A DNA stretch of 64,000 nt from an uncultured bacterium. Its GTDB lineage: Bacteria; Abyssobacteria; SURF-5. The position numbers and the translations under genes are program-made. Below the pieces are notes generated by a model that had not been told where the DNA came from, searched no databases, and saw nothing but the letters and a program-made list of their open reading frames with translations. Position 1 is the stretch's first letter, and each line of letters begins with the position of its first letter. The stretch is from assembly GCA_964607485.1 (NCBI GenBank), contig CAZSKP010000001.1, positions 32,001 to 96,000 of the forward strand, read 5' to 3'. Positions 5,209 to 45,184 of this stretch are shown in pieces.

Positions 5209-5246
5209 TGTCAGCTTTCTTTATAGCCTTGTAAAGAATCCTGTCG
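5209..5246. promoter_or_regulatory. Enhancer-like (UAS) inverted repeat, copy 1
   Basis: TGTCAGCTTTCTTTATA-gcct-TGTAAAGAATCCTGTCG; matches the copies at 21642 and 30659; about 83 bp upstream of a sigma54 site. Confidence 0.7.
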
Positions 5247-5327
5247 GCAGGCCGCTTCACTGTATCGGTCAGCGTGAAAAGCAGTGTATTTATTGGGCAT
5301 TAACGTTCGTTCGACCGTGTTTTTCCG

Positions 5328-5343
5328 TGGCATGTTATTTGCT
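5328..5343 (+). promoter_or_regulatory. sigma54 (-24/-12) promoter of the diguanylate cyclase gene
   Basis: TGGCATGTTATTTGCT = GG-N10-GC consensus. Confidence 0.8.
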
Positions 5344-5447
5344 CATATTCTGGGAGCAAAGGGCCGTGAGAAGGACTCGATGTGCAGCGGATGCGGCATG
5401 GCCCACAGGCAGGCACATAGGGGGGGTGGATTGTCGGAACGTTCTCC

Positions 5448-6611
5448 ATGGCTGTGGAGTTTGCGACAGGCGTATCGCTGCACCTGGAGAAACGCATGAA
5501 CCGAATCGTAGAAGACAACCTGCGTCCCGGCGATGACCCCGGGATGCCATCGTACGAACAGCTCCATTTACCCAAGATGGAAACAGCGAGCGGCTTATCG
5601 CCAGACGACATTGCCGAAGGGCGCGGTTCGAAGGGTATCCACGGAGAGGGCAACGTGTATCGGTCCTTCAACTTTGCCCAATTTCTCATTTACAACAACA
5701 GCCGCACGCTGCGGGCGCTCGCGATTGACGGGAACGATGCTGAGCGTTCCCTCATCGCCGACACGCTCGCCGGCTGCGGTGCGGAGGTGAGCTTTGCAGG
5801 AGACGGTGTCGAGGCGGCTCAAAAAATGCGGCAAGCGCATTTCGACATGGTCTTCGCGGAGCGCCACGTGGTCGCAAAGGATAAGTTCAGGCTGATTTCT
5901 CTCGCAAGGGAGACATCTCCCGATACCGAGATATTCGTGGTGTGTAAATACGAGGAAATGAGCAACGCCGTGGAGTGCACGAGAAGAGGAGCCGAAGGAC
6001 TCATCATCAAGCCGGACGTTAAGGAGCAGGTCGCCGTGGCCGCAGGCAAGACAAGGGAGCGAAAAGACCTGAGACTGCTGGCATATACTGACGGACTGAC
6101 CTCGCTGTTCAACCGCAGCACTTTCGAATATTTTCTCCTGCAGGAATGCCATCGAAGCACCCGCCACGGACATTCCTTTGCGTTGATGATGCTGGACATC
6201 GACGATTTCAAACAGTACAACGATATGAACGGCCATCTGGTCGGCGACATCGCCCTGATCAAGCTGGGAAGGCTGCTGAGACAGTGCACGCGCGCCTCGG
6301 ACATCCCCGCCCGTTACGGCGGGGATGAATTTGCGGTTATCCTGACGGAAATCACCCGCTCCGAAGCGTTGCACAGAGCGACTCGCTTGAACCGGACCGT
6401 TTTTCTCACGCCGTTCCAGTATGAGAAGAACATGGGCGCCAAGAAACTGACGGCAAGCGTCGGGCTGGCGCTGTACCCGGAGCATGGGAAAGACCATCAC
6501 GAGATCGTCGCAAGCGCGGACCGCGCCCTCTACCGGGCGAAGGCCGAGGGAAAGAACCGGGTTTGCGTCTTTGACAAATCAGACAAGCCGGCCGGGTCGG
6601 GCCGCTGGTGA
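5448..6611 (+). CDS. Diguanylate cyclase with degenerate receiver domain
   Basis: DGLTSLFNR, DIDDFKQYNDMNGH, RASD I-site and intact GGDEF; upstream REC-like fold. Start uncertain (5448 or 5496). Confidence 0.9.
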   Translation: MAVEFATGVSLHLEKRMNRIVEDNLRPGDDPGMPSYEQLHLPKMETASGLSPDDIAEGRGSKGIHGEGNVYRSFNFAQFLIYNNSRTLRALAIDGNDAERSLIADTLAGCGAEVSFAGDGVEAAQKMRQAHFDMVFAERHVVAKDKFRLISLARETSPDTEIFVVCKYEEMSNAVECTRRGAEGLIIKPDVKEQVAVAAGKTRERKDLRLLAYTDGLTSLFNRSTFEYFLLQECHRSTRHGHSFALMMLDIDDFKQYNDMNGHLVGDIALIKLGRLLRQCTRASDIPARYGGDEFAVILTEITRSEALHRATRLNRTVFLTPFQYEKNMGAKKLTASVGLALYPEHGKDHHEIVASADRALYRAKAEGKNRVCVFDKSDKPAGSGRW

Positions 6612-6616
6612 TCGTT

Positions 6617-7684
6617 TCACAAACCGCGCGAGGAACTTGTGACCGGGCACATCGAGGCGCGGCCGCCGGGACCGCGGCCGGGCCGTCGGCCGATGGATTG
6701 AATCCGTTGGCGCAAGCCTGAGTGGGATTCGGATCCCGTCTCCCTGATGCACACCTTGCCCGGATAGACCTCATACTTCGCGCGATAGCTGAGCGGCGTC
6801 ATGTTTGGCATGATGACGTTGGCTCCCCGCCCGAGGCCGAGCTCGCGTCCGACGGCGGAGTTGACCGTCGCCAACGCCGTCGTGGCGGGGATGTTGGCTT
6901 CGGGACAGACGATGCGCGTGAGCGCGATCACCTTGTACGTCATCTCTTCCGTGTTGGGCGCCTGTTCGTTCTCAGGGATGGGCCGTCGCCATTCACCCGA
7001 GCCGACGGGCGTATCCGGGTGGGGAATGTAGGGGCCCACTCCGACCATGTCGAGGTCGAGCTTCCGGAAGAGGTCGATGTCGTCGGCGAGGCCGGCAAAC
7101 GTCTGTCCGGGGATGCCGATCATGACACCGCCTCCGATTTCGTAGCCCATCTCCCTTAGTCTTAGCAACGCAGCCAGGCGGTCCGACACCCTTCCCGGAA
7201 GCGACGGATGGATTAACCGATAGAGGTCGGGGTCGGAGGTCTCAAACCGGAGAAGGTACCTGTCGGCCCCGGCCCGCCGCCAGGCCTGCAGGTCTTTGTC
7301 GGGACGCTCTCCCATGCTCAGCGTGACGGCCAGCCGGGTCTCGGCCTTTATGCGGCGAATGACGGCGGCAAGCCAACCGGTTCCGATACCGTAGTCTTCG
7401 CCCGACTGGAGGACGACCGTGCCGTAGCCGTATCCCACGGCTGCACGGACGCACGTCATGATCTCGCCCTCTGTCATTCGGTAGCGTTCGACCTTCTTGT
7501 TGTCACGCCGCAGGCCGCAATAGCCGCACTGCCGCACACAGTGGTTGGAGATCTCAATCAGGCCGCGCAGGTGCACCTCGTCGCCGACGGTTTCGCGCCT
7601 CACCCCGTCGGCCCAGCGCCAGAGCTGCGCAAGGCGTTCTTCGTCCTCTTCCCGCAGCCATGCGAGTATTTCGCTCCGGTTCAT
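6617..7684 (-). CDS. hydE: [FeFe]-hydrogenase maturase HydE (radical SAM)
   Basis: LRGLIEISNHCVRQCGYCGLR, ADRYLLRFET, NIPATTALAT, GANVIMPN, YEVYPGK; ATG at 7684 overlaps the hydF stop (ATGA). Confidence 0.93.
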   Translation of the reverse strand: MNRSEILAWLREEDEERLAQLWRWADGVRRETVGDEVHLRGLIEISNHCVRQCGYCGLRRDNKKVERYRMTEGEIMTCVRAAVGYGYGTVVLQSGEDYGIGTGWLAAVIRRIKAETRLAVTLSMGERPDKDLQAWRRAGADRYLLRFETSDPDLYRLIHPSLPGRVSDRLAALLRLREMGYEIGGGVMIGIPGQTFAGLADDIDLFRKLDLDMVGVGPYIPHPDTPVGSGEWRRPIPENEQAPNTEEMTYKVIALTRIVCPEANIPATTALATVNSAVGRELGLGRGANVIMPNMTPLSYRAKYEVYPGKVCIRETGSESHSGLRQRIQSIGRRPGRGPGGRASMCPVTSSSRGL

Positions 7685-8922
7685 TGTTGCTGCCTTTTCA
7701 CTTCCCGATACACTTCCAGCGCGGCCGGGAACGGATCGAGCGCGCGCTCGAGGATGCCGAGTGAGTAGGCTATCGCCAGTCCATAATTGGTTATCGGCGC
7801 CTTCGCCTGGCGGCATCGCAGCAGCCGCGTCAGCATCTCGCGCCGGTTCAGCATGCAGGCGCCGCAGTGGACGATGAGATTGTAGCGCGAGATGTCGTCG
7901 GGGAAGTCGTGTCCCTGAATGGTGTCGAACTCCAGTTTTCCGCCCACGTATTGAGTCAGCCAGCGGGGAATTTTCACGCGGCCGATGTCCTCGGCTATCG
8001 GATGATGCGAGCATGCCTCGCAAATCAATATGCGGTCTCCCGGCTTCAGTCGTTCGACGGCCAATGTCCCCATAACCTGTTGTACAAGGTCGCCCTTGAA
8101 ACGTGCGTAGAGAATCGAGAACGAAGTCAACTTGATTTCGCGCGGGGTGTCGGCGGCCACTTTCAGAAACACCTGTGAATCGGTCACCACGAGTTTTGGG
8201 GGACGCTTCTGTCGTTCCAGCGCGTCGCGCAGCTCGCGCTCCTTGACAACCATGCAATAGGCGTCGCTATCCAGCAGGTCGCGGATTGCCTGAACCTGAG
8301 GCAGAATCAGCCGTCCTTTTGGCGCCTCCTTGTCAATGGGAACCACAAGCACCGCCATCTCTCCCGCGCCAACCAGGTCACCGAGGATTATCGGGTTGTT
8401 GATAAATTCCGCAGGAGCCGTATCGAGCAACGCCCGACGAAAATCCAGTATTCCCATGTTCAGAGTGGCAGCGGTTCTTACGACGGGGATTTTCCGCGAT
8501 TGCAGCCGTTCAACGACTCCGCCGTTCGGCTGAGCGAGGTCAATCTTGTTAAGGACCACTATGCTCGGGATTTTCTGGTTGGCGAGCTCATCCAGCAGTC
8601 GTTCCTCGAAGGTTCCCCATTTGCGGGCCTCGCACACGACGACGCCGAGGTCTGTACGGTCAAACACCTGGCGCGTTCTCTTGACACGAAGCTCGCCGAG
8701 TGCGCCTTCGTCGTCTATTCCCGCGGTGTCGATGAACAGCACAGGCCCCAGCGGCAGAAGCTCCATAGGTTTCTCGACCGGGTCGGTCGTGGTGCCCGCC
8801 TGCTCGGACACAATGGAGACCTGCTGTCGCGTTATCGCGTTGAGCAGGCTCGACTTTCCGACGTTGCGGCGGCCAAACAGCCCGATGTGGAGTCGGAGTC
8901 CTTTTGGAGCGCGTTCACCCAT
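7681..8922 (-). CDS. hydF: [FeFe]-hydrogenase maturation GTPase HydF
   Basis: GRRNVGKSS, GTTTDPV, DTAG, NKID, APKGRLILPQVQ, EACSHH...HCGAC Fe-S motif. Confidence 0.96.
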   Translation of the reverse strand: MGERAPKGLRLHIGLFGRRNVGKSSLLNAITRQQVSIVSEQAGTTTDPVEKPMELLPLGPVLFIDTAGIDDEGALGELRVKRTRQVFDRTDLGVVVCEARKWGTFEERLLDELANQKIPSIVVLNKIDLAQPNGGVVERLQSRKIPVVRTAATLNMGILDFRRALLDTAPAEFINNPIILGDLVGAGEMAVLVVPIDKEAPKGRLILPQVQAIRDLLDSDAYCMVVKERELRDALERQKRPPKLVVTDSQVFLKVAADTPREIKLTSFSILYARFKGDLVQQVMGTLAVERLKPGDRILICEACSHHPIAEDIGRVKIPRWLTQYVGGKLEFDTIQGHDFPDDISRYNLIVHCGACMLNRREMLTRLLRCRQAKAPITNYGLAIAYSLGILERALDPFPAALEVYREVKRQQQ

Positions 8923-10342
8923 TGTTTCCCCTTTTCGGCGCACCGGGCGAACCGAGGCGGCAAACGGCTTCCGGGCTCACCAATTCGTCAAATTTTTCGG
9001 CAGTGAGCAGTCCCTCGGCGATGGCCGTTTCCTTGATGCTCCTGCCGGTTTCATCGGCCAACTTCACGAGACGGCAAGCGCCCTCGTAACCGATTGCCCG
9101 TAGTAACGCCGTTGCCGTAGCGGTCGAACTTTCCACGTGTCCGCGGCAACGCTCTTCATCGGCCTCGATGCCCTCGACGCAGAGGCGCCTCAGGATATCG
9201 CAGCCGCGAGCGAGCAGCGTGCAGCTCTCCAACAGGCAGTTGGCAATGAGAGGGAGAAAGGGATTGAGCTCCAAGTTGCCCGACGCTGCGGCCAGGGCAA
9301 TCGTCTGGTCGTATCCCATTACCAACATGGCCAACTGCGAGACCGCCTCGGGGATCACCGGATTGACTTTGCCGGGCATGATCGAAGAGCCCGCCTGTCG
9401 CGACGGCAGACGAATCTCGCCGAACCCCGCTTCCGGCCCCGAAGCCAGCAGGCGAAGGTCCGTGCAGACCTTCAGGAGAGATGTCGCGCAGGCTTTCAAA
9501 ATGCCCGAAACCTCGACGAACACGTCGGCGTTCTGCGTTGCTTCGACCATGTTCTCGGCTCGGGCCAGACCGATTCCGGTCAGTTCGCGCAGGGTGTCCA
9601 CTACGCGAAAGATAAATTGGCGAGGCGAGGTGATGCCCGTGCCGATGGCGGTGCCGCCAAGATTGACCACGCGCAGCCGTTCTTCGCACTTATAGATGCG
9701 CCATCTGTCGCGGCTGAACGCTTCGGCATAGGCACTCATCTCCCGCCCCAATGTGGTGAGGACGGCGTCCTGCAATTCGGTGCGACCGACCTTCACAATA
9801 TGAGCGAACTGCTTCTCTTTGGACTGAAACGCTTCCTGTAGTGAAACCACCCGGTCTTCGAGTTCGCGGAGCAGTCGAATCGACGCCACCCTTAATGCAG
9901 TCGGATAGGTGTCGTTGGTGGATTGGTGCAGGTTGATATCGTCGAGCGGGGAAACGCAGTCGTAGTTGCCCGGAGTTTCTCCCAGAATCGCCAGAGCGCG
10001 GTTCGCCAGCACCTCATTCACATTCATATTGGTCGAGGTCCCGGCACCACCTTGCAGGCAGTCCACAATGATGAAGTCGTTCAACAAGCCATCCGCCATT
10101 TCCTTGCAGGCGCGTTCTATTGCGTCGGCCTTGGCTTCATCCTTCCAGACGCCCAACGCCCGGTTTGTCATGGCACAGGCGAGCTTCACGCTGCCGTAGG
10201 CGCGCACCAACTCCGGATGCACCCGTCGCCCGGCGAGGGGGAAGTTTTCGACAGACCTGGCGGTGTGGATACCGTGCAGGGAATCGGCCGGCAGACGCAC
10301 CTCACCGATTAGGTCGTGCTCGGAACGGTACCGTTCACTCAT
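8915..10342 (-). CDS. aspA: Aspartate ammonia-lyase
   Basis: GGAGTSTNMNVNEV, QSTNDTYPTA, GRTELQDA, GSSIMPGKVNP; start ATG 10342 (MSERYRSEHDLIG). Confidence 0.9.
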   Translation of the reverse strand: MSERYRSEHDLIGEVRLPADSLHGIHTARSVENFPLAGRRVHPELVRAYGSVKLACAMTNRALGVWKDEAKADAIERACKEMADGLLNDFIIVDCLQGGAGTSTNMNVNEVLANRALAILGETPGNYDCVSPLDDINLHQSTNDTYPTALRVASIRLLRELEDRVVSLQEAFQSKEKQFAHIVKVGRTELQDAVLTTLGREMSAYAEAFSRDRWRIYKCEERLRVVNLGGTAIGTGITSPRQFIFRVVDTLRELTGIGLARAENMVEATQNADVFVEVSGILKACATSLLKVCTDLRLLASGPEAGFGEIRLPSRQAGSSIMPGKVNPVIPEAVSQLAMLVMGYDQTIALAAASGNLELNPFLPLIANCLLESCTLLARGCDILRRLCVEGIEADEERCRGHVESSTATATALLRAIGYEGACRLVKLADETGRSIKETAIAEGLLTAEKFDELVSPEAVCRLGSPGAPKRGNNG

Positions 10343-10434
10343 GGTCGTCTCTTTGACAGCGGTGTCTGTTCTACAGACTTTAGCCGCCGTCCGTCGTCTC
10401 AGTGCAGCCAATGCAACTCCTCACCGACGCGTCC

Positions 10435-11733
10435 TCAAAATCTGTAGATGAGCGACGTTTGAACTCGGACGCTGTCTCCGTCTTCGAGGTTCTTGTAGTC
10501 GGTCTCCCAGCGCGACAGCTCAATTCCCGCCTGCACTGCCTCGTTCACGTCGTAGATGACGTTTCCCCAGACCGCGCAGTTGCGCGAGCGGTCGCCGTCG
10601 TTCAGGTCGCCGTTGTCGGGGTCGTCGAGGCCGGCGCCGAGGTTGTAGTGCCACCGGCCAAACGGGCCGAGGCTCAACGCCACCCAGCCGCCTGCGCTTT
10701 GTATCTCATCCATCGTGGTCTGGTTCACCCCTTGGCCGATGCCGCCCAAGTAATCGTCCAGATTCTCGCCCGTCCAGAATTCTCCCTTTGCGGTCAGCCA
10801 CTGGAAAATCGGCAGGGTGACGTCCACATTCGCCGACCAGGAGTCGAACTTCTTGTTGTTGTCCGACGCGTCCATGTCGAACTCTTCCTGTCCCCAGTGA
10901 CCGGAGACCCCCACCGTCGCCTTCTCGTCCGTCAAGAAGGGGAACGACAGGGCCGTCCTGCCCTGGAAGGTGGGGAATCCCGTGTCTTCGCCGGTGTCTC
11001 CGGGGTCGTAGGCGATGTCGTCTCCTATCGTACGCGTGGCCGCGGCCTGAAACACGAGATGCGAGTCGGCGCCTACGTCGAATCCCTTCGTCAAACGGAA
11101 CTGGGGTCGCCGGTAGCCGATGTTCCCGACCCACCAGGCGACCGAGTAGTTCAACGTGTACGGATAGAGCGGAGAGATCACGTCGGACGTCTGACCCGCC
11201 AGGATGCTGAAGTCTCGTTCGGGCCAATTCAGTTCGAGGTAGGCGTGCCGAAGCATCACTCGGTTCTTGTTTTCGCCGCCGCCCTCGTAGAAGTCAATCT
11301 CGACTCTTCCCCGTGTCGAAGCGCCTCCAAACTCGGGGCCGTCGAATTTCAGTCCCAGCCTCGATTCCCGCGCGGTCGCGTTGAACTGGTCGTCGTCCTC
11401 GCGGTCCTCTTCGGATTCCACCCATCGGGCGAAATTGCCGACATCGGTGCGCGCGCTGTCATAGGCGGCGTCAAACTTCAGGTATCCGTAAAGCACGACG
11501 GGATACGACGACCGCACTGCCGGCTTATCCTTTCCGGCAACGGGAGCGGGTTGTTCGGGAAGGAGCGACTTGATCTCATCGAGGGCCGCCTCGAGGCGTT
11601 CGACTCTTTGTCGCAGTTCAACATTCTCTCGTTTCAGCCTCTCCATTTCGTCCGCATTCTGGTTCTCCTGTGCCCACGCGTTCCCGAATAGCAGCGCCAT
11701 CACAACCAGCACGGATGTGAGTAGTTTTTTCAT
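10435..11733 (-). CDS. DcaP-like outer-membrane porin
   Basis: Signal peptide, N-terminal coiled coil, LYGYLKFDAAYD, ARESRLG, RVEIDF, LRHAY, LAGQT, C-terminal YRF beta-barrel signal. Confidence 0.75.
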   Translation of the reverse strand: MKKLLTSVLVVMALLFGNAWAQENQNADEMERLKRENVELRQRVERLEAALDEIKSLLPEQPAPVAGKDKPAVRSSYPVVLYGYLKFDAAYDSARTDVGNFARWVESEEDREDDDQFNATARESRLGLKFDGPEFGGASTRGRVEIDFYEGGGENKNRVMLRHAYLELNWPERDFSILAGQTSDVISPLYPYTLNYSVAWWVGNIGYRRPQFRLTKGFDVGADSHLVFQAAATRTIGDDIAYDPGDTGEDTGFPTFQGRTALSFPFLTDEKATVGVSGHWGQEEFDMDASDNNKKFDSWSANVDVTLPIFQWLTAKGEFWTGENLDDYLGGIGQGVNQTTMDEIQSAGGWVALSLGPFGRWHYNLGAGLDDPDNGDLNDGDRSRNCAVWGNVIYDVNEAVQAGIELSRWETDYKNLEDGDSVRVQTSLIYRF

Positions 11734-12193
11734 GATTCATCCTCGCGAATCCTGAAGCGCGCCGCAGCCGTGGGTCATTTCCCGTGCGAATCCTCCCCGT
11801 GAGCCTTCTCGCAGGACCGCCGGCGTGCGGCGCTTCGCCGGGTCCCCTCGTCTGCTTTTCTCGTGACTCCAGCCGATCGGATATGAGCCGGTTGAGAAAC
11901 TCGACCAGCCTGGCGCGGTCGGCCTCGGCCAGCCGCTCCCAGGAATCCGAAACCAGTCCGATGTTGTTTTGCAATTCGATTCGCTCGACGCCGCCCCTCG
12001 GCGGGTGTTCCGGCATCTGGCCCGCCAGGTAGGACCAGCGTCGCCCGAATATCTCGACGAACCACAGCCTGAGATCAAAGCGCTCTTGTGCACGCAGGGC
12101 AAGCCTGCCAAGCGAATCGGCGAGCGAGCGCCCCTTGGTCTCACCCGCAACGATTCGGAGCCAGTCGTCAAACCCTGAGGTCTCTCTCTCCAT
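11618..12193 (-). CDS. Hypothetical protein; only the first ~110 aa look protein-like
   Basis: Start overlaps the hydG 3' end; globular-looking core (LWFVEIFGRRWSYLAG). The Arg/Gly-rich tail overlaps the porin gene, so the 3' boundary is doubtful. Confidence 0.55.
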   Translation of the reverse strand: MERETSGFDDWLRIVAGETKGRSLADSLGRLALRAQERFDLRLWFVEIFGRRWSYLAGQMPEHPPRGGVERIELQNNIGLVSDSWERLAEADRARLVEFLNRLISDRLESREKQTRGPGEAPHAGGPARRLTGRIRTGNDPRLRRASGFARMNHEKTTHIRAGCDGAAIRERVGTGEPECGRNGEAETREC

Positions 12194-13634
12194 TCTCGAT
12201 TGCCTTCAGCATTTGCCCGAGGGCGAGCCGCATCGCTTCCGGGACATCGCCCATTCTGCGCTCAATCAATTTCTCGCCGACCTTCCTCGTTTCCTCCGAG
12301 GCGTAGTCGAGCAGGTATTCCTTGAACGTCAGGATGGCGTTCGGTATGCAGAACTGGTGAACCTTGCCGGCCTTGGCGATTTTCATGAAATAGCTTCCGG
12401 TTCTGCCACACCGGTAGCCCGCCGTGCAGAACGAGGTGAGGTAGCCCATGTCGGCGATTTCGCGGACGACTTCGTCGAGGCCCCTTGTGTCGCCGAGCAT
12501 GAACTGCTGCCGCTCCGCCTCCTGTATTCCCGTGGCCTCGCTGTAGGCGCCGATGCCTATCTTCGTGGAAGCGTCGGTCTGGGTGCAGCCAACGTTGAGC
12601 ACGTCGCGCCTGATATGCGCCGGCTCCCTGGCCGTGAGGATCATGCCTGTATAAGGCACAGAGAGTCTAATGACGGCGACCAGTCGCTTGAAATCCCTGT
12701 CGCTCACCTTGTGGGGCGAATTTTCGCAAATCGGCGCGTTCGCCGCCGGTTCGAGCCTTGGGAACGAGATGGTGTGAGGGCCGATTCCGTCGAACCTCTT
12801 TTCGAGGTCGATGGCGTGATACAGGAGGCCAAGCACCTCGAATTTCCAGTCATACAGCCCGAAGAGCGCGCCTATCGCCACGTCGTCCACCCCGGCGTCA
12901 AGCGCCCTGTGGAGCGCATAGAGACGCCATCGGTAATTCGACTTGCTCCCTCGCGGGTGCATCTTCTTGTACGTCTCATGGTGGTAAGTTTCCTGAAAGA
13001 CCTGGAACGTTCCGATTCCCACGTCGCGGAGAAGCTTCAGGTTGGCGACGGTTTGGGGCGCGGCGTTTATGTTGACGCGCCTGATCTCGCCGTTGCCTAC
13101 CCTGGTTTCGTAGACGGCGCGGATGGTATCGGCGATGTAGTTCACGTCGCTTGCAGGGTGCTCACCATACACCATGATCAGCCTCTTGTGGCCGAGCGAG
13201 ACCAATGCCTTCGTTTCCCTGCGGACCTCGTCGATGGTCAGTTTGCGCCTCTTTTCGGCCGTGTTTTCTCTCCGGAAGCCGCAGTATAGGCACGAGTTGA
13301 CACACAAGTTGCTGCAGTAGAGGGGTGCGAACGTGACGATGCGGGGGCCGTACACCTTCAGCTTGACGCTGAGCGCGGTTTCAAACATCTCTTCCCACAG
13401 GCCCTCGTCTTCGACGTTGAGCAGCGCCGCGGTCTCGCGCGGTTCGAGCCTCTGCAGCGCGAGCGAACGGTCGAGGATGTCGCGAATCCTTTCCCGCTCG
13501 GGTTTTCTGTTCTCTTCTATGAGTCGTTCGATTTCCGCGTCGTCGATGAAATCCTCGCCGCCCTTAAGGTACCGGGTGATCTCATCGTCGTGCACCACCG
13601 AATCGACCCATTTTTCAACTGCCAAGGACTGCAT
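12168..13634 (-). CDS. hydG: [FeFe]-hydrogenase maturase HydG (radical SAM tyrosine lyase)
   Basis: FAPLYCSNLCVNSCLYCGF, GTFQVFQETYH, GPHTISFPR, C-terminal FCTAGYRC...FCIPNA auxiliary-cluster motif, GERDL end. Confidence 0.96.
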   Translation of the reverse strand: MQSLAVEKWVDSVVHDDEITRYLKGGEDFIDDAEIERLIEENRKPERERIRDILDRSLALQRLEPRETAALLNVEDEGLWEEMFETALSVKLKVYGPRIVTFAPLYCSNLCVNSCLYCGFRRENTAEKRRKLTIDEVRRETKALVSLGHKRLIMVYGEHPASDVNYIADTIRAVYETRVGNGEIRRVNINAAPQTVANLKLLRDVGIGTFQVFQETYHHETYKKMHPRGSKSNYRWRLYALHRALDAGVDDVAIGALFGLYDWKFEVLGLLYHAIDLEKRFDGIGPHTISFPRLEPAANAPICENSPHKVSDRDFKRLVAVIRLSVPYTGMILTAREPAHIRRDVLNVGCTQTDASTKIGIGAYSEATGIQEAERQQFMLGDTRGLDEVVREIADMGYLTSFCTAGYRCGRTGSYFMKIAKAGKVHQFCIPNAILTFKEYLLDYASEETRKVGEKLIERRMGDVPEAMRLALGQMLKAIENGERDLRV

Positions 13635-15540: not shown

Positions 15541-15568
15541 ACGCAGCCTCCGACGCGAGCCGTCGCGG

Positions 15569-15976: not shown

Positions 15977-16011
15977 TGCCTCCTTCTGTGGGCGTCCCCC
16001 CAGAAATTCGC

Positions 16012-17739: not shown

Positions 17740-17773
17740 GCTGCTTCTCCTTCATCGAGATGGAATTCCGATT

Positions 17774-20872: not shown

Positions 20873-20877
20873 GACTT

Positions 20878-30796: not shown

Positions 30797-30888
30797 CATA
30801 GTATCTTCCGTAACTGCAAAGGCGGGAGATGAAACGTCAAGGACCCCCGAACCCGTCGAGCGAGAGAGGAGAGGACGCGAAGGTTCCC

Positions 30889-32619: not shown

Positions 32620-32620
32620 C

Positions 32621-34687: not shown

Positions 34688-34709
34688 GGAAGCTGGAGGA
34701 AATCGAACA

Positions 34710-35201: not shown

Positions 35202-35205
35202 CGCC

Positions 35206-36936: not shown

Positions 36937-37385
36937 ATGCCATCAATCTGCTCATTGTGGACGACGAAGAACGGCTTCTGGCAACTCATAAGAAGCTCCT
37001 GGACAAGCGCGGGCTAAACACGGCCACGTGTACCAACGGGCTCGATGCGCTGAAGATTCTGAAAGAGCAGCCCATCGACGTCGTGCTCCTCGACGTGAAA
37101 ATGCCCGGAATGGACGGCATGGAGGTCCTGCGCCGAATCAAGCAGGATGCGTCCGGAGTCGAGGTGATTCTGATCACGGGAAATCTGTCCGTCGAATCGG
37201 AGGTCGCGGGGTTGCAGGAGGGAGCGTTCGGCTATTTGAAGAAGCCGGTCACCATTACGGAAATTCAGAAAAAGGTGGAAGAGGCCTTCGTTCACAGGCA
37301 GGCGCGGTCGGGAAACGTCCGTGAAACCGCGCTCCAAGCGACCGACTCAGACCGAGGGCTTCCGCGCACAGAAGAAGGAAACTAG
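36933..37385 (+). CDS. Stand-alone response regulator
   Basis: GTG start overlaps the kinase stop (GTGA); IVDDEE, LDVKMP, ITG, KKP. Confidence 0.9.
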   Translation: MNAINLLIVDDEERLLATHKKLLDKRGLNTATCTNGLDALKILKEQPIDVVLLDVKMPGMDGMEVLRRIKQDASGVEVILITGNLSVESEVAGLQEGAFGYLKKPVTITEIQKKVEEAFVHRQARSGNVRETALQATDSDRGLPRTEEGN

Positions 37386-37406
37386 GAACGGGGGAGTAAG
37401 GGACAC

Positions 37407-39140
37407 ATGGAAACCGCCGATTTCAAAGGCACCCGGATGATGATTCTCAGCAGGGTTCTGCTGGTTCCATTCGTGGCGGTCATGCTCGTGTTCGGCACGC
37501 TCGTCTATTACTTCGCCACCAATCTTCGGAGCCAGGTGGAGGAAAGACTTGCGTACGTCGCCGACGGACACCGCCAGATTATCGAACAGTTTCTGCATGA
37601 ACGATGTTCCGACCTTGAATACGCCGCGAGTTCGCACAGCTTCGAGGAACTCAGCGGTGCCCGACGCCTGGCCGAAGTCTTTGAAGCATTGCAGACGCGG
37701 ACGCAGGCGTTCTTTGACCTGGGACTCTTTGACGCTCAGGGCAACCATGTCGCCTACGTCGGGCCGTATGACCTGAAAGGCAAGAACTATGCACAGGCGG
37801 AGTGGTTTCTCCAGGTTCGGGAAAAGGGACAATACATCTCCGACGTGTTTCTCGGCTATCGCAATATTCCCCACTTCGTCATCGCGGTTCGTCGTGAAGA
37901 ATCCAGCCGCGTCTGGTACCTCCGCGCGACGATAGACACGCTTTTCTTCAACGATCTGGTTGAAAACATCCGCATTGGAAAGACGGGAGAGGCCTACCTT
38001 GTGAACCGTGGGGGAGTGTTCCAGACGCCGAGGCGTTCCGGAGGAGCGTTGATGGGGATCGACCCGGATTACGGCGTTTACCAGGTCCACGAAGGCGCCG
38101 TCGCCTCCTTTGCGGCCGATGACGACGCCGGCTCTCGACATCTCTACGCCACGTGCCGTCTCGCATCCACCGGATGGCTTCTGGTGGTGCGTCAGGAAAT
38201 CGGCGAGGCCTACGCGCCTCTCGTTCGCGCCGTGTTTCTCGCAATCGCAATAATCCTAGCGGGAGGCGTGGTGGTGGTCACGATGGGCTTCCTGCTCGCC
38301 ACCGGCGTCACGAATCAACTGAGCGCCGCCGACATGGAGAGACGCCGAATGGGAAGCCAGTTGATCATTGCGGGCAAGCTCGCCGAGGTCGGCGAGATGA
38401 GCGCCGGACTGGCGCACGAGATCAACAATCCCCTCCAGGTGATGAAATCGGAGGAGGCGCTCGCCGTAGAGATTCTGGACGAAATGAAGGCGAACGGCAA
38501 TCCCGGCCAGGCCGAAAATATCCAGATGGTCCGGGATTGCATAACCCGAATGGGCGGTCAGATTGACCGATGCAAGAGGATAACCCTGGGGCTCCTGAAG
38601 TTTGCCCGCGAATCCGAAGCGGCCATCCAGCAGATAGACCTGAAGCCATTCATGCGAGAGGTCGTCGCGATGGTGGAGCGCAGGGCCGCCGTCGAGAATA
38701 TACACCTTCTGCAGGAATTCGCCCCGGACCTGCCTCGATTTCAGAGCGACCCGGCTCAACTGCAACAGGTGTTCCTCAATCTGCTCAACAACGCCATTGA
38801 CGCGCTTGCCGACAAGAATGAAGGCGAGATACGGGTCACAGCGTCCCGTGGCGATGATGAGGTGGTCATATCGGTGGCGGACAATGGCTGCGGCATCGCC
38901 CCCGAACATATGGAAAAGATATTTCTGCCGTTCTTCACTACGAAACCGGTCGGGCGGGGAACGGGGCTGGGGCTGAGCACGTGTTACGGCATCGTGACGC
39001 GCCTCGGCGGAAGGATTACCGTGAGCAGCGAACCGAATGCGGGGTCGGTTTTCACCCTGCACTTTCCGCTCAGCGATCCTTCCGAGCAGTCCAAAGCGTG
39101 GCTGCCCGCCCGCGAACGAGGACAAGGAGGAGCAACATGA
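37407..39140 (+). CDS. Cache-domain sensor histidine kinase 3 (paralog of kinase 2)
   Basis: Same motifs as 35206-36936; AHEINNPL. Confidence 0.92.
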   Translation: METADFKGTRMMILSRVLLVPFVAVMLVFGTLVYYFATNLRSQVEERLAYVADGHRQIIEQFLHERCSDLEYAASSHSFEELSGARRLAEVFEALQTRTQAFFDLGLFDAQGNHVAYVGPYDLKGKNYAQAEWFLQVREKGQYISDVFLGYRNIPHFVIAVRREESSRVWYLRATIDTLFFNDLVENIRIGKTGEAYLVNRGGVFQTPRRSGGALMGIDPDYGVYQVHEGAVASFAADDDAGSRHLYATCRLASTGWLLVVRQEIGEAYAPLVRAVFLAIAIILAGGVVVVTMGFLLATGVTNQLSAADMERRRMGSQLIIAGKLAEVGEMSAGLAHEINNPLQVMKSEEALAVEILDEMKANGNPGQAENIQMVRDCITRMGGQIDRCKRITLGLLKFARESEAAIQQIDLKPFMREVVAMVERRAAVENIHLLQEFAPDLPRFQSDPAQLQQVFLNLLNNAIDALADKNEGEIRVTASRGDDEVVISVADNGCGIAPEHMEKIFLPFFTTKPVGRGTGLGLSTCYGIVTRLGGRITVSSEPNAGSVFTLHFPLSDPSEQSKAWLPARERGQGGAT

Positions 39141-39589
39141 GCGCATTGCATTTGCTGCTGGTGGATGATGAGGAGCAGTTCCTGTCCACAACCAAGAAGC
39201 TCCTGGAGAAACGCGGCGTCGACACGATCACCTGCACGAACGGGTTCGACGCGTTGGAGATTCTCCGGAAGCGTCGCATCGACGTGGTGGTTCTCGACAT
39301 CAAGATGCCGGGGATCGACGGGATCGACGTGTTGACCAGGATCAAGCGCGATCATCCCGTCGTCGAAGTCATCCTGCTCACCGGCCATGCGTCCGTGGAA
39401 TCGGCGGTGGAGGGGCTGAAACTGGGCGCCTTCGACTACTTGACGAAACCGTCCAAGGTTTCGGAGATCATGGCCAAGGTGGAGGAGGCCTTCGAGAGGA
39501 AAAAGGCCAAGGAGGAGAAGGCCCGGAAGACCAAATTCGACAACATCATCCGTCATCCCATGGCCGTGTATGAAAAAGACGAGGAGTGA
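39137..39589 (+). CDS. Stand-alone response regulator
   Basis: ATGA overlap with the kinase stop; VDDEE, LDIKMP, LTGHA, GAFDYLTKP. Confidence 0.92.
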   Translation: MSALHLLLVDDEEQFLSTTKKLLEKRGVDTITCTNGFDALEILRKRRIDVVVLDIKMPGIDGIDVLTRIKRDHPVVEVILLTGHASVESAVEGLKLGAFDYLTKPSKVSEIMAKVEEAFERKKAKEEKARKTKFDNIIRHPMAVYEKDEE

Positions 39590-39623
39590 CCCTGGTCCGT
39601 GTGGCGCCATCGGAGTGTAACCA

Positions 39624-41471
39624 ATGACCACAGAGAAGCGAAAAGCGACAGGTTACGATAAGTACATCGATTGGAAAATCTTCGTCATTCCCGTGCTGCT
39701 GCTGTTTGCGATCATGTACGCGCCGGCCACCGACGGCATGCGTGATGTGGGAACCGAGTACGGCGTCGGTCCGCAAAAGGTCATCGACTATCTTTCCGAG
39801 CAGATGTTCAAGAGACCGACCGCCGACCTCGACCAGTGGCAGTTGTTGACATGTCGGATCATCGAACAGTCGATGCGCGGCGGCGCGATGGGCCGCGCCA
39901 GGTTCCTGAAACGCGACGAGAAGTGGTGCAGGAGCAACGGCATTCCCGTGGACTCGACGAACCTCGCGCGCGCCAAGGAGTTTGTCGGCGGCATGGATGA
40001 CGACTCGTACCGGGAGCTTCTGATGTCGGCGGCGAAGCTGCGCACCGAGGAGCTGCATTATGAAGGACTCTCCGGGGCCGACCGCAAGCTCGCCGACAAA
40101 GCCACGTGGAAGCTGAAGGTAGCGCTGGCCGTGACGGTGTTCACGGTATTCTGCTTCGTGAGCGGATGCATACCGCTGCCCGCCGTGGCGTTCTGCATCG
40201 GGTTGGCGTTTACGTTCACCGGCGTCGTCTCACGCACCGAGGTGGCGGCGTTCTACTGGAGCGACGCGGTCTGGTTCATCATGGGCAGCCTGATGTTCGC
40301 CTCCGCGTTCGTCAAGACGGGGGTGGACCGCCGCATATGCCTCATGCTGTTCAGCAAGCTGGCCCGGCCGAGCGTCGCGGCCATCACGCTCGTAATGATT
40401 ACCGTCATAGCTCCCGCCGCCTCGTTCATCTCCGACCACGCGCTTGCGGCCATCTTTCTCCCAATCGCCATCATCCTGCATCGCGGCAGTCAGGTGGAGG
40501 GCAACCCTACCGACTTGGAGCTCGGGAAAATGCTCGTGATCACCGTGGCGATGGCATGCAACATCGGCGGCTTCGGCGCGCCGAGCGGCGGGGCTCGCAA
40601 TGTGATCATGATGACCTACCTCGAGGACATGTTCGGGATGGACATCGGGTATTTCACGTGGATGACGTATGCCATGCCGTTCGTGCTCGTCATGATGCCG
40701 CTCACGTGGCTCGCCATCCAATGGCGGTTCAAGCCTGCCACGCGCGACCTCTCCACCGCGATGAGATTCCTCAAAGACGACATCACTCGAATGGGAAGGT
40801 GGAGCCGGCAGCAGGTCGTCACGCTGATTATCTTCGCGGTAATGGTGTGGTTCTGGTTCACCGAGAAATCATTCTTCGATATCGGCATCTATCCCGTCCG
40901 CCTCGGCATCGGCGTGGTTGCCGTGGCCGGGGGAGTCGCATACATCCTGGCTGGTGTGGTCAACTGGCGCGACTATCAAGAAAAGGTTGACTGGGGCGTC
41001 GTATGGCTTTATGCGGGGGCTATCATTTTCGGCAAGGTCCTCGACGAAACGGGCGCCGCCTACTTCATCGCCCGAACGGCCGTGAACGGGCTCGCTCACT
41101 TCGGCATCGCCGCCGGCATTCCGCTCATCGCGATGGCGAGCGTGCTAACCGGATGCATCACGCAGATCATGGCCGACGGACCGGCAGCGGCCGCCGTCGG
41201 GCCAATTACGCTGAATATGGCGGGCATCGTTCATCCGGGCACGGTCATGCTTCCGTTCATGACCATGGCCACCGCCGCGGCTTCGAGCTTCGCCTACTGC
41301 CTGGTCATCGGCACTCCGCCCAATGCGATCGTGTACGCAAGCGGATACCTCGAGCCGAAGGATTACCTCCGGGTCGGTATCCCGGTGTGGTTTCTGTCGA
41401 ACATCGTGCTCTTCCTGTTGGTTGGAGTGTATTGGATGGCCCGGGGATTCGGCGGACTGCCGGGTTTTTAG
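39624..41471 (+). CDS. DASS/SLC13-family transporter
   Basis: KTGVDRRI, CNIGGFGAPSGGARN, VDWGVV, IGTPPNAIVYASG; multi-TM with a large soluble loop after TM1. Confidence 0.9.
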   Translation: MTTEKRKATGYDKYIDWKIFVIPVLLLFAIMYAPATDGMRDVGTEYGVGPQKVIDYLSEQMFKRPTADLDQWQLLTCRIIEQSMRGGAMGRARFLKRDEKWCRSNGIPVDSTNLARAKEFVGGMDDDSYRELLMSAAKLRTEELHYEGLSGADRKLADKATWKLKVALAVTVFTVFCFVSGCIPLPAVAFCIGLAFTFTGVVSRTEVAAFYWSDAVWFIMGSLMFASAFVKTGVDRRICLMLFSKLARPSVAAITLVMITVIAPAASFISDHALAAIFLPIAIILHRGSQVEGNPTDLELGKMLVITVAMACNIGGFGAPSGGARNVIMMTYLEDMFGMDIGYFTWMTYAMPFVLVMMPLTWLAIQWRFKPATRDLSTAMRFLKDDITRMGRWSRQQVVTLIIFAVMVWFWFTEKSFFDIGIYPVRLGIGVVAVAGGVAYILAGVVNWRDYQEKVDWGVVWLYAGAIIFGKVLDETGAAYFIARTAVNGLAHFGIAAGIPLIAMASVLTGCITQIMADGPAAAAVGPITLNMAGIVHPGTVMLPFMTMATAAASSFAYCLVIGTPPNAIVYASGYLEPKDYLRVGIPVWFLSNIVLFLLVGVYWMARGFGGLPGF

Positions 41472-41488
41472 AAAGGGAGGAACCGTTT

Positions 41489-42427
41489 GTGGATAAGGCC
41501 GATGCCATAAGGGTCCTGATCGTTGACGACGAAGAGCGCTTTCGCGCCAACACCGCCGCCATCCTCAATCGGCGCGGCTTTGTAGCGACGGCCGTCGGCA
41601 GCGGGATCGAAGCAATACAGGAGATCAAGAAGCAGCCGTTCGACGTCGTCATCCTCGACGTGAAGATGCCGGGCATGGACGGACACGAGGCGCTGCGCGA
41701 GATCAAGAAAATCCGGCCGGAGCTCGAGGTGATCATGCTCACGGGCCACGGCACGCTCACCTCGGCGCTTGTCAGTCTGCGCGGCGGCGTGTTCGACTAT
41801 CTCGCCAAGCCGTGCGACATCGATGTCCTTGCCGCGAAGGTCCGCAGCGCTTATGCGAAGGAAAAAGGATTGGCGGAAGTGGAGCGTCGCGCGAGAGACA
41901 TCATGGTGCCGCTCTCCTCGTTCAGCGCCGTCCACGACGACCAGACCGTGGCCGGGGCGATTCAGGTGATTCTTCGTTCGTTCAAGACGATCATGAGCAC
42001 GGCGACAGTGCACGAGACGGTGCACCGTTCCACGCTCATACTCGACAGGAACGACAACGTCATCGGCGTGCTCAGTTTTGCCGACCTCCTGCAAGGCCTG
42101 CAGCCCGTCTATATGCGGCTCCTCAAGGAGCGGCCGCCGCTGGCCGACTCTTTGCACCTGGAACCGTTCAGCTATTCAGGAATGTTTACGATTATGGTGC
42201 GCGACCTGGCCAACAAGCGGGTCCGCGACCTGATGTCAGAGGCGCCTCCCGATATCGACGCCGACGCGAACCTGATGGAGGCTGCAAGCCGGCTGTTGGT
42301 GCTGAGAGTGCCGCGGATGCTGGTCATCGAGGGCGGGAAGACAATCGGCGTTCTTCGGGAACAGGACCTCTTCTTCGAGATAGCGAGGATCGTAGGGGAG
42401 CGTGAGGGGGAAGAGAGGGACTCATAG
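41489..42427 (+). CDS. REC-CBS protein, copy 2
   Basis: GTG start with GGGAGG RBS; intact REC; ARDIMVP...IGVLSFAD and VRDLM...IGVLREQD. Confidence 0.9.
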   Translation: MDKADAIRVLIVDDEERFRANTAAILNRRGFVATAVGSGIEAIQEIKKQPFDVVILDVKMPGMDGHEALREIKKIRPELEVIMLTGHGTLTSALVSLRGGVFDYLAKPCDIDVLAAKVRSAYAKEKGLAEVERRARDIMVPLSSFSAVHDDQTVAGAIQVILRSFKTIMSTATVHETVHRSTLILDRNDNVIGVLSFADLLQGLQPVYMRLLKERPPLADSLHLEPFSYSGMFTIMVRDLANKRVRDLMSEAPPDIDADANLMEAASRLLVLRVPRMLVIEGGKTIGVLREQDLFFEIARIVGEREGEERDS

Positions 42428-42498
42428 AAACCACGAACATGAATGGAAGTTCCGTCGACGCCCGGGGCGCCGAAGATTTCGAAAGGAGTGAGAACGCC

Positions 42499-42936
42499 AT
42501 GAGCAAGCAAAAGAACATCCGCGTACTGATCGTGGACGACGAGGAGCGCTTCCGCACGACGGCAACGGCCACGCTCGCAAAGCGCGGTTTCGATGTCAAG
42601 GCGGTGGAGGGCGGAGCCGAGGCGCTCGAAGAGATACGGAAGGATGCGGTCGATGTCGTGGTGCTCGACGTCAAGATGCCCGGCATGGATGGAAACGAGG
42701 CCCTCCGAGAGATGAAGATACTCCGGCCGGACCTCGAGGTGATCATGCTCACCGGTCACGGCACCGTGGACTCGGCCCTCGAAGGATGGCGTGACGAGGC
42801 GTTCGCGTACCTCACAAAGCCGTATGACATGGAATTGCTCGCGGAGAAGATTCGCGACGCATACGGCAAGAAGAAGGGACTGGACGGGACAGTGTGGTAC
42901 TCCGTATGGTCTAAGGACCAGCCTCCCGGACATTGA
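42499..42936 (+). CDS. Stand-alone response regulator
   Basis: AGGAG RBS before ATG 42499; VDDEE, LDVKMP, LTGHG, LTKP. Confidence 0.9.
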   Translation: MSKQKNIRVLIVDDEERFRTTATATLAKRGFDVKAVEGGAEALEEIRKDAVDVVVLDVKMPGMDGNEALREMKILRPDLEVIMLTGHGTVDSALEGWRDEAFAYLTKPYDMELLAEKIRDAYGKKKGLDGTVWYSVWSKDQPPGH

Positions 42937-42990
42937 CCACGCGTCGCCGGCCCGGAAGAGCGGCGGATTGTCCTTATTGGAGCATCGGAC

Positions 42991-43932
42991 ATGGAAAAGG
43001 ACGAAACAGTTCACGTTCTCGTCGTAGACGATGAGGACCGTTTCCGGATCACCACTACGGTCAGCCTCAAGAGGCGCGGGTTTGCCGTCAGAGCCGTGGC
43101 TGGCGGCGACGAAGCCATCGAGGAAGTGAAGAAGGGCGACGTGGATGTCGTAATTCTCGACGTGAAGATGCCCGGCATTGACGGGCACGAGACCCTGCGG
43201 GAGATACGGCGCCTCAGGCCGGGTATTCAGGTGATAATGCTGACCGGATATGGGTCGGTCGGTTCGGCGCTGGAGGGCTGGCACGAGGGAGTGTTTGCGT
43301 ATCTGACGAAGCCGTCGAGCATCGATTTCCTTGCAGAGAGAATCAGGGAGGCGTACGCGAAGAAGAAGGGCGCCCCATGTGAGGAGCGCCGAGTGAAGGA
43401 CATCATGGAGCCGCTGTCGGCGTTCATCAGCACGGTTCGCCGGGACCAGTCGGTAGCCGAAGCCATTCAGGAGATGCACCGTTTCTTTGCACACACCATT
43501 GCGGCCACGAAACGCAAAGAAGCCCTGCTCCGTTCTCTGTTAGTCACGGATGAGCGGAGCAGGGTCATCGGTGTGATCGGTCTCACCGACCTCCTGCGCG
43601 GACTGCAGCCGTCCTGCATGCGGTTGCCCGACGACCGGCCGGCCGCGGCGGATACGACGTACCTCGACCCGTCGAGCTGCCTGGGAAACTTTGCCACGAT
43701 GGTCCGCGGCCTGGCCACGAAGAAGGTCGGGGAACTGATGTCGGAGAGGCCCGCTACCATCGACGCCAATGCCGGTCTCATAGAAGCCACGAACCGGCTC
43801 TTATCGCTCAGGGTCCATAGTCTGTTGGTGATGGATGACGGCGAGGCGGTGGGAGTGGTCAGGGACAAGGACCTGTTTCTGGAAATGGCGAACATCGTGA
43901 GAGAGCGTCCTGCGGAGGCCGGGGCCTCATGA
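42991..43932 (+). CDS. REC-CBS protein, copy 3
   Basis: Intact REC; VKDIMEP...IGVIGLTD and VGELM...VGVVRDKD. Confidence 0.9.
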   Translation: MEKDETVHVLVVDDEDRFRITTTVSLKRRGFAVRAVAGGDEAIEEVKKGDVDVVILDVKMPGIDGHETLREIRRLRPGIQVIMLTGYGSVGSALEGWHEGVFAYLTKPSSIDFLAERIREAYAKKKGAPCEERRVKDIMEPLSAFISTVRRDQSVAEAIQEMHRFFAHTIAATKRKEALLRSLLVTDERSRVIGVIGLTDLLRGLQPSCMRLPDDRPAAADTTYLDPSSCLGNFATMVRGLATKKVGELMSERPATIDANAGLIEATNRLLSLRVHSLLVMDDGEAVGVVRDKDLFLEMANIVRERPAEAGAS

Positions 43933-44017
43933 TGAACCACGGACGCCTCAGGCTCGACCGGCATGGCGTGTCCGACCGTTTCTTGATCGGCCTTTGGCCA
44001 AGAGAGAGGAGCCAACC

Positions 44018-44707
44018 ATGAAAGCGCCGGCGTTCAACAACAAGACCTACCAGGTGGATGCGGGTGGGTTTCTGACGGACCCCGAGCAATGGGACGAGGA
44101 TTTTGCGGCTAGGCTCGCGCCGGAATTAGGAATTCCCCACGGACTGACGGAAGAGCACTGGAAAGTCATCCGCTTCATCCGGGGGACGTATGAGCGAGAA
44201 GGGAGATGCCCGCTGATATTCACGACCTGCAGGGCCAACGACCTTCACCTCAAGGACTTGCAGAAGCTCTTTCCCGCCGGGTACTTGCGAGGGGCCTGCA
44301 AGCTCGCGGGCATCACGTATAAGGAGGCGTGCTTCGCTCCGGGCCTCGTTTCGATAGGAGACCGGACCGCCGCTCCACGAGCCGCCGAGGAGGGCCGCCG
44401 CGCCGTTCCTCCCGTGGCCGAGAAGACCTATACGATAGACACGCAGGGATTCCTCGTGAATCCCGACGACTGGGACCAGCGGTTTGCGCTGCTCAAAGCG
44501 TACGAGATGGGGATTTTGGAGACATTCTCGAACAGGCATTGGGAAGTCATCTACTTCATTCGCGACAGCTATGACGAGAACGGTGTCGTCCCGACGGTGT
44601 ACGAAACCTGCGAGGCAAACAACCTGGACATCGAGAGTCTCGAAAAACTCTTCCCTCACGGGTATCACCGCGGCGCGATCAAGATGGCCGGTCTGAGGGT
44701 CCGATAG
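44018..44707 (+). CDS. Tandem (two-domain) TusE/DsrC/DsvC-family sulfur-relay-like protein
   Basis: Two repeats of D..GFL..P..WD..FA...HW.VI.FIR..Y...P...L.KLFP.GY.RGA.K.AG; GAGGAG RBS before ATG 44018. Confidence 0.88.
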   Translation: MKAPAFNNKTYQVDAGGFLTDPEQWDEDFAARLAPELGIPHGLTEEHWKVIRFIRGTYEREGRCPLIFTTCRANDLHLKDLQKLFPAGYLRGACKLAGITYKEACFAPGLVSIGDRTAAPRAAEEGRRAVPPVAEKTYTIDTQGFLVNPDDWDQRFALLKAYEMGILETFSNRHWEVIYFIRDSYDENGVVPTVYETCEANNLDIESLEKLFPHGYHRGAIKMAGLRVR

Positions 44708-44785
44708 ATGATGCCGTTCCGGGTTCGCGGAACAGAGGGCAGCTTGTCTTCGGAGACATGGAGACAGGAAGGAGGAAGAGTGCAA

Positions 44786-45184
44786 ATGAACGCCCGCAAA
44801 TCCGTGCTTTTCGTCGATGACAACAAGGAGTTTCGAAAAGCGATGAGAAAAGTGTTCGAGAGGTCAGGCTACGCATTCACAGAGGCCTGCGACGGGCTGG
44901 AGGCGCTTGCTCTCCTTTCGCAGAACAGGTTCGACCTCATCCTTTCCGACCTCAGGATGCCTAACCTGGACGGAATGGGACTGATGGAGGAGCTCAGCAG
45001 GCAGGAGCTGGACGTGCCCGTTATCTTCATCACGGCATACGGAGACGTCGAGTCGTACTTGGAGCTGATGAACATGGGCGCTTACGACTACCTTAACAAG
45101 CCCTTCGGCACGGAGGAGATTCTCAGCGTCGTCGGAAGCGCACTCGATACACACAGAACTCCGCTCCACAGCCCGAGCCGCTGA
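44786..45184 (+). CDS. Stand-alone response regulator
   Basis: FVDDN, LSDLRMP, ITAYG, GAYDYLNKP; AGGAGG RBS. Confidence 0.9.
   Translation: MNARKSVLFVDDNKEFRKAMRKVFERSGYAFTEACDGLEALALLSQNRFDLILSDLRMPNLDGMGLMEELSRQELDVPVIFITAYGDVESYLELMNMGAYDYLNKPFGTEEILSVVGSALDTHRTPLHSPSR

Follow-up and report, generated by a model that had tools for sequence, protein, structure and literature searches.

At glnAp2 of enteric bacteria, the NtrB/NtrC two-component system acts through adjacent dimer sites located roughly 100–140 bp upstream of the −24/−12 promoter. Sigma-54 activators of hydrogenase genes are also well described and include FhlA/HyfR, for formate hydrogenlyase, and HoxA, for the [NiFe] uptake hydrogenase. 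Sigma-54 targets include components of Ni,Fe-hydrogenase and of formate hydrogenlyase (PMC12316311). In Desulfovibrio (Nitratidesulfovibrio) vulgaris Hildenborough and related organisms, two-component sigma-54 activators control the DVU0110/DVUA0057 regulon. The published binding sites (Kazakov et al. 2015, PMC4641369) are 17-bp TGT-N11-ACA sequences of the form TGTCGGA-N5-TTTACA, several of which occur in tandem, 19–20 bp apart, upstream of −24/−12 promoters. Here we analyze an element of similar build that occurs three times in a 64,000-bp stretch of DNA (hereafter the window; positions 32001–96000 of contig C1) from an uncultured bacterium belonging to a small, separate phylum-level group. 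The genome that holds the window, G000, comprises 4.7 Mb on 93 contigs and is 97.5% complete. Judging from sequence comparisons, we consider it likely that the element serves one NtrC-type enhancer-binding protein as its enhancer, or upstream activator site, and that this protein is most likely a response regulator encoded on contig C37.

The element consists of two 17-bp TGT-N11-ACA-like sites, a TGTCAGGATTCTTTAC-like left site and a TGTAAAGATTTCCGTCAG-like right site, at a spacing of 20 bp (21 bp in copy 1). Jointly, the two half-sites form an imperfect palindrome of 38–39 bp. The half-site, TGTCAGGATTCTTTACA, is very like the DVU0110/DVUA0057 site and, compared by eye, agrees at 14 of 17 positions with the DVU0132 site (PMC4641369). 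All three copies were found at the window positions named in the original prediction, on the forward strand. Copy 1 (5209..5247) has half-sites of 17 and 18 bp that lie 21 bp apart, copy 2 (21642..21679) is common to two divergent promoters, 132 bp either side, and copy 3 (30659..30696) is closest to the family consensus. The pattern TGTCAG-N13-15-TGTAAAGA matched the window three times and was absent from every one of 100 dinucleotide shuffles used as a control.

Each copy adjoins at least one sigma-54 type promoter. A strict −24/−12 pattern, scanned over both strands of the whole genome, yielded 94 matches, four of them in the window, and each of these four adjoins an element. They are the four GG-N10-GC promoters that had been predicted: that of a diguanylate cyclase gene (5328..5343, plus strand; TGGCAT-N5-TTGCT), 119 bp from the start of copy 1; that of a hydrogenase unit (21531..21546, minus strand; CGGCAT-N5-TTGCT), 132 bp from the far end of copy 2; that of an acetate unit (21774..21789, plus strand; CGGCAC-N5-TTGCC); and that of a signalling and transport cassette (30781..30796, plus strand; CGGCAT-N5-TTGCT), 122 bp from the start of copy 3. 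All four contain GG and GC at a separation of 10 bp, embedded in a sequence that resembles TGGCAC-N5-TTGCW. The gap of 83–97 bp previously proposed between element and promoter exists at all four, although its length, measured from the element end to the promoter, is 82–96 bp. By chance, a strict match would be expected within a 21-nt range of start positions at a frequency of ~2e-4 per site. The prediction had also presupposed a genomic rpoN, and the gene was found on contig C74 (open frame of 486 aa; Sigma54_DBD match of 220.5 bits).

A matrix of the bipartite element, run over G000, returned exactly five sites at 52–62 bits, the highest score belonging to copy 3 (61.6 bits); the next, unrelated match scored 23 bits. 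We also built a matrix from 18 sites of other genomes and no G000 site. The same five sites were its top five in G000 (37–51 bits; 37.1, 39.1 and 51.1 bits for copies 1, 2 and 3, respectively), followed by an unrelated match at 15.4 bits. Because this matrix finds the same five sites without having been trained on them, the circularity of the first scan is removed. The 23-bit match, on contig C81, was rejected as a sixth site, since the matrix from relatives scored it at less than 10 bits. A lone, strong half-site on contig C51 (~3845, minus strand, 24.4 bits), upstream of a membrane-protein gene, has no −24/−12 sequence nearby and is probably unrelated.

The two copies outside the window are located at C3:150816 and C37:3406. 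All five copies have a −24/−12 match 119–133 bp from the element start, and a further match stands 132 bp from the other end of copy 2, on the opposite strand, so that G000 holds five enhancers and six promoters in total. Five of these six promoters fit the strict pattern; that on C37, TGGAAT-N5-TTGCT, fits a looser one. The C37 target is a stand-alone receiver that adjoins the activator gene itself. The C3 target (locus L032, 8034–8360) encodes an acidic protein of 108 aa that belongs to no known family, as judged from Pfam and NCBIfam scans that used only an overlapping 202-aa frame, which itself looks like an off-frame artefact. Overall, the motif is not scattered through the genome apart from sigma-54 sites, an outcome that would have spoken against the original prediction: all five sites are coupled to promoters. 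That prediction had one activator governing the four window units as a regulon of ~40 kb. Its core is upheld by a rare, promoter-coupled motif with conserved targets, but the proposed extent is too small, there being two more sites on C3 and C37.

Our comparison set comprised 10 species genomes at the family and order level, G000 included, and 11 at the class and phylum level. The left half-site, with up to two mismatches, was present in all 10 family genomes, and the reversed control was almost empty. A degenerate bipartite pattern gave 23 matches over nine of the 10 genomes versus a single match for the reversed pattern. The matrix scan of genome and relatives that had been suggested as a check thus found co-occurrence with sigma-54 sites in both: of 21 sites located in relatives, 19 had a −24/−12 match downstream, and the two that did not are a doubtful site (L158) and one cut by a contig end (L119). 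Eight of the nine other family species genomes, representing seven genera, retain the motif and its spacing from the promoter, along with several of the target operons.

Among the conserved targets, a dCache kinase gene and a gene for a receiver-DASS fusion follow the regulator and enhancer in G001, G002, G006, G007 and G009, and are on another contig in G003. The first three genes of the window cassette recur behind the element in relatives. Because this cassette adjoins the regulator in most relatives, G000 appears to have separated the two, an enhancer copy having been retained by each. In G006, G007 and G008, the element is likewise followed by receiver-CBS, acs and MFS transporter genes in that order, an arrangement that G003 shares in part. 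The hydrogenase and acs operons lie divergently on either side of a common enhancer in G000, G003 and G009, as well as in G008, where a contig break intervenes; G006 has an additional, weaker site for its hydrogenase operon. The hydrogenase-unit promoter is conserved in G003, G007, G008 and G009. In the aligned orthologous hydrogenase/acs intergenic regions, conservation is limited to the enhancer and the two promoters, and the flanks have diverged. Other targets in relatives include glgC (G001, G002 and G009), universal stress proteins and receivers; no element was found upstream of glgC in G000. The cyclase encoded in the window is 54% identical to the product of a receiver-GGDEF gene that lies downstream of glgC, behind the element, in G001. 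In G003, the element precedes a TauE/TSUP permease gene with a phosphoenolpyruvate-synthase-like gene. The TSUP/TauE permeases are likewise a target class of the DVU0110/DVUA0057 regulon (PMC4641369).

Across the genomes, 28 distances between enhancer and promoter could be compared. They fell at 119–123 and 130–134 bp, with further values of 152, 164, 164, 236, 255 and 280 bp, and none fell at 124–129 or 135–151 bp. The best period among those of 6–16 bp was 10.5 bp (R = 0.74), a statistic that is descriptive in that orthologous promoters are counted repeatedly. Phasing at 10.5 bp is as predicted by DNA-loop activation from one face of the helix. The element accordingly has the features of an enhancer: repeated dyads, a helically phased distance to −24/−12 sequences, and rarity elsewhere. 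The IHF consensus WATCAA-N4-TTR, with one core mismatch allowed, was not found in any of the six G000 spacers. Seven of 25 spacers, versus 0.6% of shuffled spacers, contained an A-run and then a T-run at 70–82 bp from the site start; examples are at 21720–21737 of the window and ~150885–150900 of C3. These runs may be a bending or accessory element.

Listing the genome's enhancer-binding proteins, another suggested check, gave 29 strong matches to the sigma-54 activator domain. None is on contig C1, in keeping with the claim that the window encodes no AAA+ protein with a GAFTGA motif; the activator would therefore act in trans. Of the 29, the C37 protein was singled out. This regulator matches Response_reg (116.7 bits), Sigma54_activat (246.5 bits), AAA_lid_14 and HTH_8 in Pfam, and its translation carries GAFTGA and a Walker A motif. 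It thus has the complete NtrC-type architecture of a receiver, an AAA+ domain with GAFTGA and a C-terminal Fis-type helix–turn–helix. The C37 element begins 18 bp past the regulator's stop codon. A gene for a membrane histidine kinase (4HB_MCP_1, HisKA and HATPase_c) lies directly upstream of that for the regulator, and this kinase is conserved ahead of six regulator orthologues at 61–70% identity.

Orthologues of the regulator, at 77–85% identity, were present in eight of the nine other family genomes; paralogues do not exceed 50%. In all eight genomes in which the region is assembled (G000, G001, G002, G005, G006, G007, G008 and G009), the element stands just 3′ of the regulator gene and is followed by a −24/−12 sequence. 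In G003, the contig end falls within the regulator gene. G004 and G010 have neither an orthologue, their best matches being 48% and 47% identical, respectively, nor the bipartite motif. Such linkage is the customary comparative-genomic ground for pairing a site with an activator, and it is strong here, though no substitute for a binding assay. Outside the phylum set, the 13-kb locus L035 encodes a regulator that is 65% identical and contains no element. The C37 regulator scored below the NCBIfam equivalog cut-offs for ntrC (502.7 vs 558.6 bits) and AtoC (472.9 vs 714 bits), indicating that it is a member of the family but neither NtrC proper nor AtoC. The closest solved structural relatives of the regulator are Aquifex NtrC-family proteins, and the 157-aa sensor stretch of the kinase gave no match to solved structures at E values up to 1.

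The assignment of the element to the C37 regulator was weighed against the possibility that it is a sigma-54 enhancer bound by another activator, encoded on C16 or by the closest paralogue on C23 (48% identical), the C37 genes merely adjoining a target. The published 17-bp DVU0110/DVUA0057 site, which is closely like the half-site and also occurs in tandem at 19–20 bp, gives this possibility some substance: among the 29 activators of G000, it is the C16 protein whose recognition helix, by eye, is most like that of DVUA0057, and C16 orthologues occur in all 10 family genomes. However, none of nine C16 orthologues has an enhancer on the same contig, while the enhancer stands beside the C37 orthologue in eight of eight assessable genomes; G004 has a C16 orthologue yet no motif; and the C16 protein itself (L028, 1063–2460) has GAFTTA in place of GAFTGA. 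We therefore regard another activator as improbable. Several observations nonetheless weigh against the C37 regulator. Its assignment is based on gene neighbourhood and on co-occurrence in related genomes that are not mutually independent, and orthologous promoters enter the distance statistics more than once. The G004 assembly is fragmented (830 contigs), so its missing regulator and motif may be gaps. Compared by eye only, the 42-aa DNA-binding stretch of the C37 regulator is identical to that of DVU0110 at ~12 positions, DVUA0057 at ~10 and DVU0118 at ~23. The DNA-binding helix is unlike those of DVU0110 and DVUA0057, so that orthology is not established, the recognition helix of the C16 activator is closer to that of DVUA0057, and the site of DVU0118, the most similar of the three, differs from the present one.

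Explanations that dispense with an enhancer fared less well. If the palindrome were an operator bound by a repressor or architectural protein, or else formed a terminator or attenuator hairpin in the RNA, its proximity to sigma-54 promoters would be coincidental. Two of the three window copies do fold better as RNA than shuffles (z = −3.8 and −4.0 for copies 1 and 3), and copy 3 and the C37 copy come directly after the stop codon of a same-strand gene. However, the folding of copy 2 resembles that of shuffles (z = −1.0), and a T-run follows none of the three window copies. Copy 2 moreover lies between divergent promoters and hence upstream of both transcripts. The element's location upstream of promoters, the inconsistent folding and the missing T-runs together argue against a role as RNA. 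In addition, a fixed, helically phased distance to −24/−12 in 28 cases fits looping and would be predicted neither for a terminator nor for an operator that overlaps the promoter. An operator or hairpin is therefore very unlikely. As might be expected if they were relics of a repeat or mobile element, or resemblances arising by chance without a regulatory role, three of the five copies fall in a 25-kb span of one contig. Such an origin is scarcely credible given that conservation extends to the 38 bp and the promoters and not to the flanks, that eight other genomes in seven genera carry this element at promoters both orthologous and non-orthologous, and that both the shuffles and the reversed-pattern control yielded next to nothing.

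Taken together, the sequence data are most consistent with control by the C37 kinase and regulator, and we propose the following mechanism. The layout of the DNA elements, their rarity, conservation and phasing, and their linkage to the regulator gene come directly from the sequences; binding, activation, the signal and the direction of metabolism are inferred from them. The extracytoplasmic four-helix bundle of the C37 kinase would sense a signal, upon which the kinase would phosphorylate the regulator. Two regulator dimers would occupy the adjacent 17-bp sites, which, being 20 bp apart, present the same face of the DNA, and the dimers would then assemble into an active ring. Looping of the DNA over roughly 100 bp would bring the enhancer to the promoter, where ATP hydrolysis would remodel the closed complex of the sigma-54 holoenzyme at −24/−12. 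In this way, five enhancers would drive six promoters, namely those of the receiver-GGDEF cyclase; the [FeFe] hydrogenase and HydEFG; the receiver-CBS, acs, MFS and acyl-CoA genes; the dCache kinase and receiver-DASS genes; the C37 receiver; and the 108-aa C3 protein. Most likely, then, one two-component activator switches these operons on together.

The predicted system resembles NtrB/NtrC in the domain order of the regulator, the adjacent kinase gene and the paired dimer sites, and the best NCBIfam similarities of the regulator are to ntrC and AtoC. It differs in that the kinase here is a membrane sensor with a four-helix bundle, whereas NtrB is cytoplasmic, and in that no nitrogen genes are among the targets. 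As in the FhlA/HyfR and HoxA systems, the genes for a hydrogenase and its maturation have a sigma-54 promoter and an activator dedicated to them; unlike in those systems, the enzyme is of the group A6 NADH-type [FeFe] class with HydEFG, and the enhancer also serves carbon and signalling operons. The DVU0110/DVUA0057 regulon (PMC4641369) contains exopolysaccharide, biofilm and permease genes, in contrast to the [FeFe] hydrogenase and its maturases, acetate activation, diguanylate cyclase and kinase/receiver-transporter cassette found here.

Gene content was assigned by profile searches of Pfam and NCBIfam, and the Pfam matches bear out the gene list that had been proposed for the four window units. 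Downstream of copy 1 is the receiver-GGDEF diguanylate cyclase gene (5448..6611, plus strand). The hydrogenase unit (6617..21459, minus strand) comprises 11 closely spaced genes, which encode, from the promoter onward, a NuoE/HoxE-like protein (20878–21459), a NuoF-GltD fusion (17774–20872), a group A6 [FeFe] hydrogenase (16012–17739; FeFe_hydrog_A6, 893 bits, above the NCBIfam cut-off), a receiver (15569–15976), a GAF histidine kinase (13615–15540), HydG (12168–13634), a 144-aa protein of no family (11737–12171), a porin-like protein (10435–11733), an aspartate ammonia-lyase-like protein (8915–10411), HydF (7681–8943) and HydE (ending at 6617). The short intergenic gaps suggest that the unit is a single transcript. 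In the second of these proteins, of 1032 aa, a NuoF-like flavoprotein is joined to a GltD-like NAD(P)-binding module, and its gene lies beside that of the group A6 hydrogenase. The maturase genes hydE, hydF and hydG share their operon with the ammonia-lyase-like, porin-like, 144-aa, receiver and GAF histidine kinase genes (6617–15976).

On the other side of copy 2, the acetate/acyl-CoA unit (21971..30592, plus strand; Pfam and NCBIfam) encodes a receiver-CBS protein (21971–22933), an AMP-forming acetyl-CoA synthetase (acs; 23070–25067), an MFS transporter (25134–26537), an ADP-forming acyl-CoA synthetase (26604–28703) and a fusion of a CoA-transferase with a GNAT acetyltransferase (28700–30592). 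The GNAT part of this acetyl-CoA hydrolase/transferase fusion, encoded downstream of Acs, has a weak Pat-like match, and the fusion might acetylate Acs.

The signalling and transport cassette behind copy 3 (30829..45184, plus strand; Pfam) encodes, in order, a dCache kinase, a receiver-DASS fusion, a receiver, two dCache kinases, a DASS transporter, a receiver-CBS protein, a receiver, a second receiver-CBS protein, a tandem DsrC-like protein and a receiver. The cassette is interrupted by two gaps of ~470 bp (36936–37407 and 39140–39624), and the later genes are putative members. Scans of 5000–24900 and 30500–45600 for terminators and sigma-70 promoters gave results at shuffle background and were uninformative on transcript ends. 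The receiver-DASS fusion (32621–34687; 688 aa) has its receiver domain at the N-terminus of a DASS/CitMHS anion transporter, and its place behind a dCache kinase is kept in at least four relatives (L144, L145, L148 and L153). This architecture suggests that phosphorylation directly controls transport activity. The tandem DsrC/TusE-like protein (43994–44707) contains two matched stretches and occurs in a genome in which dsrA was not detected. More specifically, dsrA was not found in the 97.5%-complete G000, nor was there a match among the 11 phylum-level species genomes; the organism is therefore probably not a canonical sulfate reducer.

The target genes are compatible with two readings of the physiology, which we consider about equally probable. 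The regulon may serve the uptake of H2 and acetate for assimilation or storage, as suggested by Acs and the MFS transporter and, in relatives, by glgC and the phosphoenolpyruvate-synthase-like gene under the element. Equally, reducing equivalents may be disposed of as H2, with formation of acetate, in a fermentative or syntrophic metabolism, to which the ADP-forming acyl-CoA synthetase points. The original label of an H2–organic acid programme is thus reasonable but unproven.

The mechanism is of a textbook kind and a similar half-site has already been published for Desulfovibrio; the advance is accordingly one of content and not of principle, what is new being the gene set and the little-known uncultured lineage. 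A limited literature search found no description of this regulon or of sigma-54 acting with an [FeFe] hydrogenase, a weak indication of novelty. If our assignment is correct, the locus would document sigma-54 control of an [FeFe] hydrogenase jointly with HydEFG. A candidate activator, its exact DNA site and six promoters are now named, making experiments in a heterologous host feasible without a culture of the organism. The predicted circuit provides a wiring diagram for an uncultured lineage, in which a single kinase and activator would preside over H2 metabolism, acetate activation, a cyclic di-GMP (c-di-GMP) cyclase and receiver-rich transport. More tentatively, the system may be a lineage-specific master switch that couples an NADH-type [FeFe] hydrogenase and its maturation, acetate/acyl-CoA metabolism, glycogen synthesis (in relatives) and c-di-GMP, with a second tier in which dCache kinases phosphorylate receiver-DASS transporters. 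We hold this broader reading to be possible though rather doubtful; if true, transport activity itself would be the output of a two-component system.

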